NCBI GenBank assembly: GCA_002396645.1
Contig: DGYI01000067.1
Location: forward strand, 13,165 to 77,164
DNA length: 64,000 bases
Direction: 5' to 3'
Source: Firmicutes bacterium UBA5010
GTDB taxonomy: Bacteria; Bacillota; Clostridia; Tissierellales; Sedimentibacteraceae
Part shown: piece after piece, positions 36,001-39,000 of the stretch
How positions within the stretch are numbered: the first letter of the stretch is position 1
Layout of the letters: each line of letters begins with the position of its first letter
Position numbers: made by a program

Positions 36001-39000
36001 CGGAATTATTGTAATTACGAGCAATGCAAGCTTATAATTAAGGAAAAACATCGCTATGAACACTCCTATAACATATACGAGCGCCCAGAACATATCGACA
36101 ATTCCCCATGCAATAGACTCGCCTATTTTTCCTGTATCGCTTAAAACTCTCGACATCATATATCCTACGGGTGTTGTGTTGTAGTATGATAAGGAAAGCT
36201 TTTGAAGCTTAGTAAATACTGCTTCCCTTAAGTCAAAGCCCAAGCGCATTTCTATGAGCATAGAAAGTCTTGTAAATCCATATACAGAAATTACCTGTAT
36301 GATAAGCACCAAAATATAAAGTGCAGTGAATATTTCCATTCCGTCTAAGTTTCTTTTCTCTATAATGTTATCCACAATATAGCTTTGAAACAAAGGCATT
36401 GTTATATCTGTAAGCGCAAGAACCATCATCAGAAGCATAACTCCGATAAGCTTAAATTTATATCTTGCTATAAACGGTTTTAATTTCATCCATATTTTTA
36501 TATTAAACGATTGTTTTAAATCATCTTGTTCTTCATAGTATGACATGCTGTCACCTCCTATATTTATGCCTATGCCGTTTTACACAATGATTTGTGAATA
36601 GGCTTAGGTATTTAATCTTTTCTTAGTCTTCAATATCTGACATATTCATCTGAACATCATATATGTCTTTGTATATGCCTTCTCTTTGAATTAATTCTTC
36701 ATGAGTTCCTAAATCAACTATTTTTCCCTTATCCAGAACCATAATTGTATCAGCCTGCATAAGTGTTGTAATTCTGTGAGATATAAGAATCGTTGTTGCA
36801 TTCTTTCTGTTGGTTTTCAATGCCGCTCTTATTTTCGCATCAGTTTCTGAGTCAACTGCTGAAAGCGAGTCATCAAAAATCATTACAGGTGTATTTTGCA
36901 TAAGCATTCTGGCTATCGCTACACGCTGTTTTTGTCCTCCTGAGAGAGTTACTCCTCTTTCACCCACGATCGTATCATATCCCTTGGCAAAGCCTTCTAT
37001 TGAATCTTTGACACATGCTGTTGCAGCAGCAAGCTCTACCTCGTCCATGATGATATCTTCTTTTGTTATAGCCATATTTTCTTTTATAGTTTTTGAATAT
37101 AAAAACGGCTCTTGAAGCACCATGCCTATATTTTTTCTAAGATGGCTTAATCTTATATCATTGATATTAATTCCGCCTATTTTAATCTCACCACTGCTCT
37201 CTTCAAGATCATAAAGTCTGTTTAAAAGGTGCATGATAGTTGTTTTTCCGGAACCTGTTCCTCCGAGTATTGCAAAAGTTTTTCCGCCTTTTATTTTAAA
37301 GCTTAAATTCTCGATTATAGCACTGTTTTCGCCATATCTGAAGGTCACATTATCAAATTCTATATCTTTGCCCTCAAAGCTCGGTGTAAGTGCGTTTTCA
37401 TCGTCAAACTCTTCTTCTTCGTTTAATATCTCCGATATTCTTTTTAGAGATACCTTAGCCTTGCTCATCTCTGATAAAACTCTTCCGAAGGCTCTTATAG
37501 GCCATACAAGCATTGAGTTATATGAAACAAATGCTAAAAATTCTCCTAGGCTTATGTTTCCGTTTACGGCTTCTATTGCACCGAATACAATTATAGTCAA
37601 TACTTGAAGTCCTGAGAATAAATCTCCGAAAGACCAGTAGTATGATAGTTGTTTACCCAATTTTATCCACAAATTTGCAAGGTTATTGTTTTTTTCCTCA
37701 AACTTATCAAGTTCATATTTTTCTCTTCCGAAGGCTCTTACAACCCTCACGCCTGTCAAATTTTCCTGAGCTGTTGAATATAAAATTCCATCTGCCTCAT
37801 CAGCATCCTTAAATCTACGTGATATTATTCCATAAAATACTGCAGTATAAGTCATAATTATCGGTATAAATGCAAGTGCTATAAATGATAGCTTAACATT
37901 CATTGAAAACATCAAAATAAGTGCAATAATTATAAGCATCATAATTCTGAACAGCTCCGAGAGCTGAGCAGCTATAAATCTTCTTATCAAGTCAACGTCT
38001 GCTGTAGATCTTTGAATTATATCACCTGTCTGACTCTTTGTATGCCAGCTGTACGGCAATCTTTGAATATGTTTATATAAATGATTCCTAAGCTTTCTTA
38101 CTAAGCCCTCAGAGCCCTTTGCTATAGCTACTTTGCTGACATAATCGCATAGGCAGGTTATTACAGCAAATGCTACAATAAATAAAGCAGGTATCCACAA
38201 GTTTTGTCTTATATGCTCGACTCCTCCGACAGCTTCAATTAAATTGACAAATATCTTTGGCAGGTTCAGTGCTTCGTTCTTTATTACAGAATCGACAGTC
38301 ACTTTGATAACCTGCGGAGTTGCAAAGTTTACAAAAACTCTCACTATAATGGCTATTGCAGCCAGTATAAAAAATCCTTTCAGTCCTTTTGTGTAAGGCA
38401 TTATCAGTTTAAATCCTTCATTACCTTTTTTCACGTAATTCACCCCAATGTCTTTAAAAATTTTTTATTGCACAAAAAAATCCGGATAGGTCATAGCTAT
38501 TATAAGCATACACCTTCCGGATTTGAGCTCTAAAATAATGTACAAATATACCTTTGACAAAATATCAGCCGCAAAAATCTATCTCCTCACGGGTATCCAC
38601 GAGGCAAAAAGATGAGCAAATATAAGCTTTATAATTTCTATTTGATTTATGTAATTCGTTTAATTTCACAGTTCTTAAGTTTACTAATAACTTCAACATC
38701 TTCTTAACCTCCTTTTTTTATTTTTTATCACATACATCTGTGCAACAATATTATTGTACCATTAATAAATATATGTAATTATTACAAGATTATTACAGAA
38801 TTGATAATTTATTTTTTTATGTTGTTAAATTTTTATTCTTAATTAAAGGACATATCTCTTATAATATAGACTATATACTTTGGACTTTCAATATAATATT
38901 TATTTTTTTACCAAGTGATTTTACTTATTTGGCTTAATATAATATCCGTTTAACCCTCTTATTCTACAAAAAAATAACTAAGTCATAATAACCTTAGTTA

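Follow-up and report, generated by a model that had tools for sequence, protein, structure and literature searches.

The 64,000-nt stretch of DNA analysed here (hereafter the window; Firmicutes bacterium UBA5010, contig DGYI01000067.1 of assembly GCA_002396645.1, positions 13,165-77,164, forward strand) carries on its minus strand a Shine-Dalgarno (SD) sequence, a 44-codon open reading frame (ORF) and a hairpin with a run of seven U residues, followed by two ATP-binding cassette (ABC) genes in which a transmembrane domain and a nucleotide-binding domain are fused (TMD-NBD). We conclude that the element is very probably a genuine, conserved and previously undescribed regulatory leader, a variant of leader-peptide transcription attenuation that is not a member of the BmrB family, and we consider it probable that it works as a cis-acting, translation-dependent transcription attenuator for the heterodimeric exporter that follows. 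Our confidence in this class of mechanism is moderate, and in its details it is low. Attenuation appears to be the best explanation because the ORF is open and under selection, its stop is fixed, alternative helices covary, a strong terminator follows, and no later promoter was detected in the window.

These features had been picked out in a first-pass annotation of the sequence, and the SD, the ORF, the hairpin with its U-tract and the exporter genes were each found where it had placed them. The ORF (38565-38699, minus strand; MLKLLVNLRTVKLNELHKSNRNYKAYICSSFCLVDTREEIDFCG followed by a stop) begins with the ATG at 38699 and ends with the TGA at 38567-38565, confirming the proposed 44 codons, and the annotated SD (AAGGAGG, 38714-38708) indeed lies 8 nt from the start codon across a purine-rich spacer; SD, spacer and ATG (38699-38697) together are referred to as segment A (38697-38714). 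The terminator, a hairpin AAATCCGGAAGG...CCTATCCGGATTT at 38524-38478 with T7 at 38480-38474, was expected ~35 nt past the stop; it is present, but the measured gap is 40 nt. Likewise, the exporter start was put ~30 nt past the terminator, which fits the listed GTG at 38443 (30 nt beyond the U-tract), but the true start of subunit 1 is probably the GTG at 38434 because the first exporter gene of the relatives begins MKKGNEG; this GTG is preceded by an SD, GGGGTGA, at 38446-38440. Subunit 1 (36623-38434, listed as 36623-38443) has the Walker B motif IFDD of a degenerate site and matches TmrB, BmrC (YheI, E = 5e-88) and TM288 best among bacterial structures. Subunit 2 (34717-36546, also minus strand) has a canonical Walker B, LDEATS, and a deviant signature, LSTGE, and its best structure matches are TmrA, TM288 and BmrD (YheH, E = 8e-96). 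The combination of IFDD and LSTGE implies one degenerate ATP site, and from these motifs and matches we assign the pair to the BmrCD/TmrAB/TM287-288 class of heterodimeric exporters, in line with the heterodimeric pair first proposed. A promoter scan of the window found no promoter-like site between the U-tract and the exporter start, which supports the reading of the exporter as lying behind the terminator and suggests that the leader and the exporter pair are co-transcribed.

Relatives were gathered from genomes scanned with the first exporter subunit, from metagenomes scanned with the peptide, from 5.8 billion proteins searched by profile, and from contig look-ups. The outcome was seventeen distinct leader versions, all from assemblies of uncultured, gut-type Bacillota/Firmicutes. 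Every relative with enough DNA has the same order of promoter block, SD, ORF, hairpin with U7-8, and exporter pair, and GGAGG and AAGATG of segment A are invariant (15-17 relatives). The arrangement is beyond chance because it recurs in each sufficiently long related locus. The genes farther upstream differ (chromate transporter halves, a Band_7 protein, DUF6198, and in the window an unrelated ABC protein) with the module remaining constant, so the conserved unit is exactly the leader plus the exporter pair. Three loci whose exporter homologues are 60-64% identical (L005-L007) have an ordinary promoter, a short 5' untranslated region and no leader, making the leader a feature of one clade. In a profile search of 1.84 billion representative proteins we found five true clusters of the peptide, all of this family, and no relatives beyond these five; the peptide also has no Pfam or NCBIfam match.

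The ORF is open in all seventeen variants, with no stop in the leader frame vs 108 and 102 stops in the other two frames, at a stop frequency expected from base composition of 0.092 per codon. Its length varies (38, 39, 41, 44, 45 or 47 codons), and all indels are in frame. The distribution of differences along the ORF divides it into three parts. In codons 2-19, the first, second and third positions differ equally (0.35 / 0.36 / 0.33), indicating that the sequence of the N-terminal half is unselected and that it is the openness of the frame that is selected. In codons 20-33, the three positions are equally conserved (0.08 / 0.09 / 0.07), which indicates a constraint at the nucleotide level; across codons 2-33 as a whole there is no codon periodicity. 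In codons 38-44, EE(I/V)DFCG, the third position is the most variable (0.17 vs 0.06 and 0.04) and single-nucleotide differences comprise 106 synonymous vs 78 non-synonymous ones, so that selection at the amino-acid level appears only in these last seven codons, up to the stop. The stop itself, UGA or UAA, lies constantly 33-35 nt downstream of segment B (described below), and the two Cys residues of the peptide are nearly invariant. The leader frame is therefore evidently under selection and the ORF presumably translated, as the first-pass annotation had supposed; the conserved frame, the in-frame indels and the invariant SD all agree with this. The pattern fits a regulatory upstream ORF (uORF) in a leader rather than a secreted or enzymatically matured peptide. 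P0003 and P0005 (GW...) seem to lack the stop codon, but we put this down to gene calls that probably used genetic code 4, because in locus L028 the ORF looked up as P0005 ends in TGA.

Within the leader RNA, segment A pairs with segment B (UCAUCUUUUUGCCUC, codons 29-33, 38601-38615, minus strand) in a helix that we call P0. Segment B is the best partner of segment A in 15/15 loci, with duplex energies of -15.3 to -19.3 kcal/mol and z of -3.8 to -6.9 vs dinucleotide shuffles, significant in all fifteen, and P0 is present in every minimum free energy (MFE) fold and in both RNAalifold consensus structures. The spacers between SD and start codon differ in length and sequence yet remain purine-rich, facing the U-run of segment B, and in the divergent locus L029 a U-to-A change in segment B pairs with a U of the spacer, restoring the pair. 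P0 is thus predicted to sequester the leader's own SD and AUG. A second helix, the hairpin H1 (CCUCGUGG-AUAC-CCGUGAGG, codons 32-38, 38585-38604, minus strand), lies inside the ORF and is paired in 99.2% of cells; slid controls are 42-58% paired. Four of its eight pairs vary, two of them with changes on both sides, and its covariation score was reached by 0/500 shuffles. The pairs that vary are in codons 34, 35 and 37, at which the residue is free (V/E/K/D; R/C/F/Y), implying that the constraint there is on the RNA. A third helix, H3, is formed by the post-stop motif UCAAAGGUAU (segment D, 38548-38557, minus strand) with the loop and 3' arm of H1 (38596-38587); it is paired in 90.7% of cells, not above shuffles, it was picked by RNAalifold in both sub-groups of relatives, and one of its pairs switches between C-G and U-A. 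H1 excludes both P0, with which it shares CCUC, and H3, with which it shares its 3' arm. From these two competitions, the modelled leader can toggle between two states, P0 plus H3, which closes the SD, and H1, which leaves both SD and post-stop motif open. A further helix suggested by a terminator-like scan hit, H2 (CCGUGAGGA:UUUUUGCGG), was rejected, being without covariation, 82% paired and mostly G-U.

The conserved, covarying helices and the nucleotide-level conservation of codons 20-33 could also be expected of a sensor made of RNA alone, either a riboswitch or a leader that binds a protein, a tRNA or a small RNA, with the ORF incidental. We regard this as very improbable, since the frame statistics exclude an RNA-only element: the stops missing from one frame, the in-frame indels, the invariant perfect SD and the synonymous excess in the last codons have no place in it, and the region between stop and terminator is highly variable. 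Nor did Rfam 15 give a match: a 901-nt region returned chance-level hits (E above 1), and the whole window at gathering thresholds returned only a tRNA. Antitermination of the ANTAR, RAT or T-box type, mediated by a protein or tRNA, was likewise dismissed, with no Rfam hit and no linked regulator.

The constant linkage of the ORF to the exporter pair, the selection of EE(I/V)DFCG at the amino-acid level and the two nearly invariant Cys residues invite another explanation, namely that the ORF encodes a small functional peptide (a signal, a bacteriocin-like product or an exporter-associated peptide), that the hairpin is its leaky terminator, and that the ABC pair exports or assists it. A terminator between a small gene and transporter genes is also found in lantibiotic structural-gene operons, and a strong terminator in this position is typical of peptide operons in general. 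We nevertheless think a functional peptide unlikely. There is no conserved GG motif or signal leader, and the exporters are plain MsbA/BmrCD-type proteins without a C39 peptidase or N-terminal peptidase extension; no maturase or immunity gene is conserved nearby, the flanks varying by locus, and the Pfam and NCBIfam searches were blank. The N-terminal half is neutral and codons 20-37 are constrained as RNA, not as protein. The divergent peptide P0018 alters C28, F31, C32, T36 and E38 yet its leader keeps P0 and H1, and sequestration of the SD in the full-length RNA would be odd for a product needed in quantity. AgrD-like and double-glycine precursors were considered specifically and rejected, as their motifs are not conserved.

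The terminator (38474-38524, minus strand) consists of a 12-bp bulged stem, AAAUCCGGAAGG / CCUAUCCGGAUUU, a small apical helix and U7. In the window its energy is -17.6 to -19 kcal/mol and it is also part of the whole-leader MFE fold; across loci, the energies are -11.7 to -19 kcal/mol and the tract is U7-8. A simple terminator scan skipped this hairpin solely for its loop of >8 nt. The intrinsic terminator that had been proposed between leader and exporter is upheld by the comparison, the hairpin and U-tract being kept in 14/14 loci with 97.6% of cells paired and with a compensatory change in which the window has CCGGA/UCCGG in place of CCAGA/UCUGG elsewhere (G-C for A-U, both sides). Termination would occur at the U-tract. 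The 5' arm, CCAGAAGGUG, is invariant and the upper 3' arm is variable, which suggests that the 5' arm is under a second constraint. In the window the terminator starts 41 nt past the stop, and in relatives ~90-200 nt past it, the distance from stop to U-tract being 81-244 nt across relatives; the region in between is highly variable in length and sequence, and the window has the most compact spacing among the loci. In nine loci (L003, L004, L016, L018, L021-L023, L026 and L028), inserts of 50-160 nt with hairpins of their own lie between the leader stop and the terminator.

Two other candidate features near the terminator were rejected. The -10 of a promoter-like pair, TTGTCA-17-TATTTT at 38560-38532, lacks conservation, and the pair is in any case located upstream of the terminator. 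A 31-codon ORF on the minus strand (TTG 38560 to TAA 38465), which starts 4 nt past the leader stop, crosses the hairpin and ends just beyond the U-tract, might have allowed re-initiating ribosomes to melt the hairpin; it is not conserved and we treated it as chance. Among the relatives, this second ORF meets a stop before the terminator in L001 and many stops in the loci with long spacers.

Upstream of the leader lies a block, TTCTGTAATAATCTTGTAATAATTACATAT (38753-38800, minus strand), that is nearly identical in all relatives with upstream DNA, occurs once in the window, and stays the same where the sequence flanking it differs between relatives. It contains a direct repeat, TGTAATAAT-CT-TGTAATAAT, and a palindrome, TGTAAT-A-ATTACA, followed by an extended -10, TGGTACAAT, at 38761-38753, and it is more conserved than the N-terminal coding sequence of the leader. 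By its match to the consensus, we infer that the block is a promoter, and it is probably also the operator of an unlinked repressor. The palindrome resembles the 7-1-7 boxes of the Fur family. What is probably the transcript's 5' end forms a stem-loop, UUGCACA...UGUGA (38727-38744, minus strand), which relatives keep with changed pairs (by eye, UUGCAC/GUGCGA, UUACAC/GUGUAA and UUGUAUAC/GUAUACAA). Its UUGCACA is also complementary to UGUGCAA right after the U-tract (38467-38473, minus strand) in the window and one sub-group, and in the MFE fold the resulting long-range helix surrounds the entire leader; the other sub-group lacks this helix, and we rejected it, the local 5' hairpin being the better account. 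The preceding gene (39079-40704) encodes another ABC protein and has a terminator-like hairpin and U-tract of its own at 39001-38968 (minus strand; ATAACTAAG...CTTAGTTAT, then T7), and the leader therefore appears to be separately transcribed from its own promoter. This gene is very AT-rich, shows a bacteriocin-exporter-like relation without a peptidase domain, and adjoins the leader in none of the relatives.

The following model would account for these features by attenuation. The dedicated promoter (~38800-38753) would make a leader RNA with a strongly initiating 44-codon ORF that is translated as far as a stop whose position is fixed, and the terminator (38524-38474) would end most transcripts ahead of the exporter genes, so that the exporter is made only upon relief. 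The ground state of the RNA would be P0, H3 and the terminator. A ribosome on the SD and start codon or moving along the ORF would break P0, and H1 would form instead. Without induction, the ribosome would reach the stop and leave, or never load, giving P0, H3, the terminator, and a transcript end at 38480-38474. Upon induction, the ribosome would be retained, with either a translation inhibitor stopping it at or close to the start or its nascent chain arresting it at EE(I/V)DFCG-stop; this would keep segment A off segment B and allow H1 to form. The U-rich half of segment B (CAUCUUUU) might then form a transient duplex with the terminator's purine-rich 5' arm (AGAAGGUG) and delay the hairpin, letting the polymerase pass. 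P0 may additionally confine translation of the leader to nascent transcripts. In this scheme, the link between leader translation and termination and the inducing signal are both inferred from the sequence, and antibiotics as the inducer are proposed purely by analogy.

Several results weigh against this reading. Mutually exclusive terminator and antiterminator folds had been suggested as a check in the first-pass annotation, and the folding that we performed gave no convincing antiterminator. When a ribosome with a 30-nt footprint was set at each codon in turn in fifteen loci, the equilibrium probability of the terminator stayed at ~1.0 throughout, with a minimum of 0.86. The best upstream duplex to the 5' arm of the terminator (-7 to -13 kcal/mol) beats shuffles in only 3/13 loci, L020, L024 and L025 (z about -3), where the partner is the 5' arm of H1, and in 9/13 it does no better than they do; the window has the same partner without significance (z -1.5), and the larger sub-group has z of about -0.4. 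The partner varies by sub-group, being the 5' arm of H1 in some and the 3' arm of H1 or segment B in others. When nascent RNA was folded as far as the terminator loop, the terminator's 5' arm was mostly unpaired or locally paired, and its sole recurring distant partner is segment B (CAUCUUUU with AGAAGGUG), mainly when the SD and start are masked. This duplex is weak, with 8 bp including 2-3 G-U and about -6 to -8 kcal/mol, and it is beyond a covariation test because both sides are invariant. The variable spacer of 41-200 nt between stop and terminator implies that a ribosome on the leader has no direct steric action on the terminator. Each version of ribosome retention also has its difficulty, as a stall at the start leaves the conserved C-terminal residues and the stop position unexplained, and in the case of C-terminal arrest queued ribosomes would cover segment B. 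Finally, in L001-L004 and others, 60-220 nt lie between the terminator and the exporter, and in some relatives a stretch of 130-220 nt there might hold an extra promoter; the insert in L001 has repeated GTATGC/GCATAC and, by eye, a possible promoter, TTGTAT-17-TAAAAT. An antiterminator, if one exists, would thus be kinetic and weak according to the modelling. Two specific candidates were rejected: pairing of GAUUUnUGCGGCU at the ORF end with UUAGnGCUnAAAUC at the terminator base reaches only the A-U extension and spares the GC core beside the U-tract, and would therefore not block termination, and pairing of the 5' arm of H1 with the 5' arm of the terminator scores well in the window, L020, L024 and L025 alone, the large sub-group lacking it.

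These results would fit an alternative, in which the terminator is a constitutive dampener that keeps basal exporter expression low, regulation occurs at the promoter block, and the ORF and helices govern the leader RNA's own translation or stability. Consistent with it, no competitive antiterminator was found, the palindrome and direct repeat of the strongly conserved promoter block suggest a repressor site, P0, H1 and H3 switch access to the leader SD without demonstrable contact with the terminator, and at patAB a terminator alone sets expression (PMC4319486). A constitutive terminator gives, however, no reason for a selected frame of 38-47 codons with a perfect SD and a fixed stop, and leaves the invariance of the 5' arm opposite a varying 3' arm unexplained; also against it, promoter control and attenuation coexist in an analogue studied by experiment (PMC4191407). 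We give it a rather low probability, and retain translation-dependent attenuation as our preferred reading. A more specific form of the latter, in which EE(I/V)DFCG at the fixed stop is a ligand-dependent arrest peptide that responds to an exporter substrate or drug class and acts on the distant terminator through a relay of P0, H1 and H3 without a classical antiterminator, is speculative, and we would give it only a small chance.

The surroundings of the exporter pair contain other genes with a possible connection to resistance. Downstream on the same strand is a run of resistance-like genes (28729-34408, minus strand) encoding an S-adenosylmethionine methyltransferase, GNAT_C and GNAT acetyltransferases, a fusion of a beta-lactamase fold with GNAT, and an ANT(9)/AadA-like nucleotidyltransferase (85 bits, under cutoff); this run apparently does not lie behind the exporter pair in the related loci L001-L004. 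Beyond it is a gene for an Lsa-like ARE ABC-F ribosomal-protection protein (27034-28599, minus strand; NF000355, 405.9 bits vs a cutoff of 380). The region preceding this gene (28600-28728) has a 10-codon uORF, AGGAGA...ATG AGA CTA AGG AAA GCA GCT GGA CTA AAA TAA, then a hairpin, AACCTAGCTA...TAGCTAGGTT, and then the gene's own SD, and looks like a second, independent leader-ORF attenuator candidate in the same window; we count its presence in favour of the attenuation reading for the exporter leader.

Attenuators that report ribosome status ahead of efflux pumps decide when intrinsic resistance turns on, and the leader described here would be a second, unrelated and unannotated example, from uncultured Firmicutes, with a layout outside both the bmrB and the trp schemes. 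The leader shows a clean evolutionary pattern, with a maintained frame, a neutral N-terminus, and conservation of a C-terminal motif and of three RNA helices. If relief does occur without a stable antiterminator, or by peptide-specific arrest, the repertoire of leader-peptide switches would be wider than the known schemes and the element would offer a compact, testable sensor; a relay through the helices would amount to a new coupling of a ribosome sensor to termination. Should it be an ordinary drug-stall attenuator, the annotation would still be useful for resistome prediction from metagenomes.

To our knowledge, bmrBCD is the only attenuator that has been dissected for a heterodimeric ABC exporter. 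In Bacillus subtilis, translation of the bmrB leader and ribosome-targeting drugs control read-through of a terminator ahead of bmrCD (Reilman et al. 2014, PMC4191407), and the 53-codon ORF itself contains the terminator, the antiterminator and the anti-antiterminator, at nt 60-162 (PMC4191407). The match to this system that was originally suggested for the window holds for the general logic and the exporter class, and fails for the layout and the peptide similarity, and no convincing antiterminator was found; it is because layout and peptide similarity fail that we set the element apart from the BmrB family. In both systems, a small ORF that has its own SD directly precedes a heterodimeric exporter with one degenerate ATP site, an intrinsic terminator separates promoter and exporter genes, the subunit with the degenerate Walker B is encoded first, as with BmrC/YheI, and there is probably a second layer of control at the promoter. 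They differ in that the terminator here lies past the stop (by 41 to ~200 nt) and not inside the ORF, in that there is no evident antiterminator and the SD and AUG are predicted to be sequestered by a downstream coding segment, and in that the peptide has, by profile search, no similarity beyond its own family (BmrB itself was not aligned).

The leader of patAB in Streptococcus pneumoniae is another case in which a terminator precedes a heterodimeric ABC exporter operon, and there a Rho-independent terminator limits exporter expression (PMC4319486). That leader, however, covers 67 nt between the predicted transcription start and the patA start codon, and the text of the report does not contain the phrase 'open reading frame' (PMC4319486).

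Leader-ORF attenuators of ARE ABC-F resistance genes (vmlR, msrD/MsrDL, lmo0919) share the logic proposed here, in which a drug-stalled ribosome on a short uORF relieves a downstream terminator. The uORFs of these genes are very short, at 3-15 codons, with stall sites in direct overlap with the alternative helices. Transcription attenuation is reported for vmlR and msrD (PMC9226507, bioRxiv 10.1101/2021.11.29.470318). The present leader differs by its length of 38-47 codons, by combining an N-terminal half that is neutral with a C-terminus that is conserved, and by having a membrane exporter as the regulated protein.

Amino-acid selection confined to C-terminal residues next to a stop of fixed position is shared with TnaC, ErmCL and MifM, and is expected if the nascent chain acts inside the ribosome. 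The leader peptide has no sequence similarity to these three, and the effector differs: theirs is a Rho site or a sequestered SD beside the stall, whereas here it would be a distant intrinsic terminator.

The remaining comparison is with the leaders of trp, his, leu and thr operons. As in those leaders, the ORF ends upstream of the terminator, the structural genes follow without a promoter in between, and the overlap of H1 with the distal part of the ORF resembles that of the 1:2 pause hairpin. Unlike them, the ORF has no conserved run of codons for a single amino acid, no 2:3 antiterminator was found by our folding, and the regulated genes encode an exporter and not biosynthetic enzymes. The only codon repeat is Ser-Ser, whose neighbours vary (C/S/N/G, I/T/V), and P0018 has changed C28, F31 and C32. 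Tight coupling of transcription and translation is, moreover, not expected in a Firmicutes host. With its ORF ending before the terminator, the layout of the element is closer to that of trp/his-type leaders than to that of bmrB.

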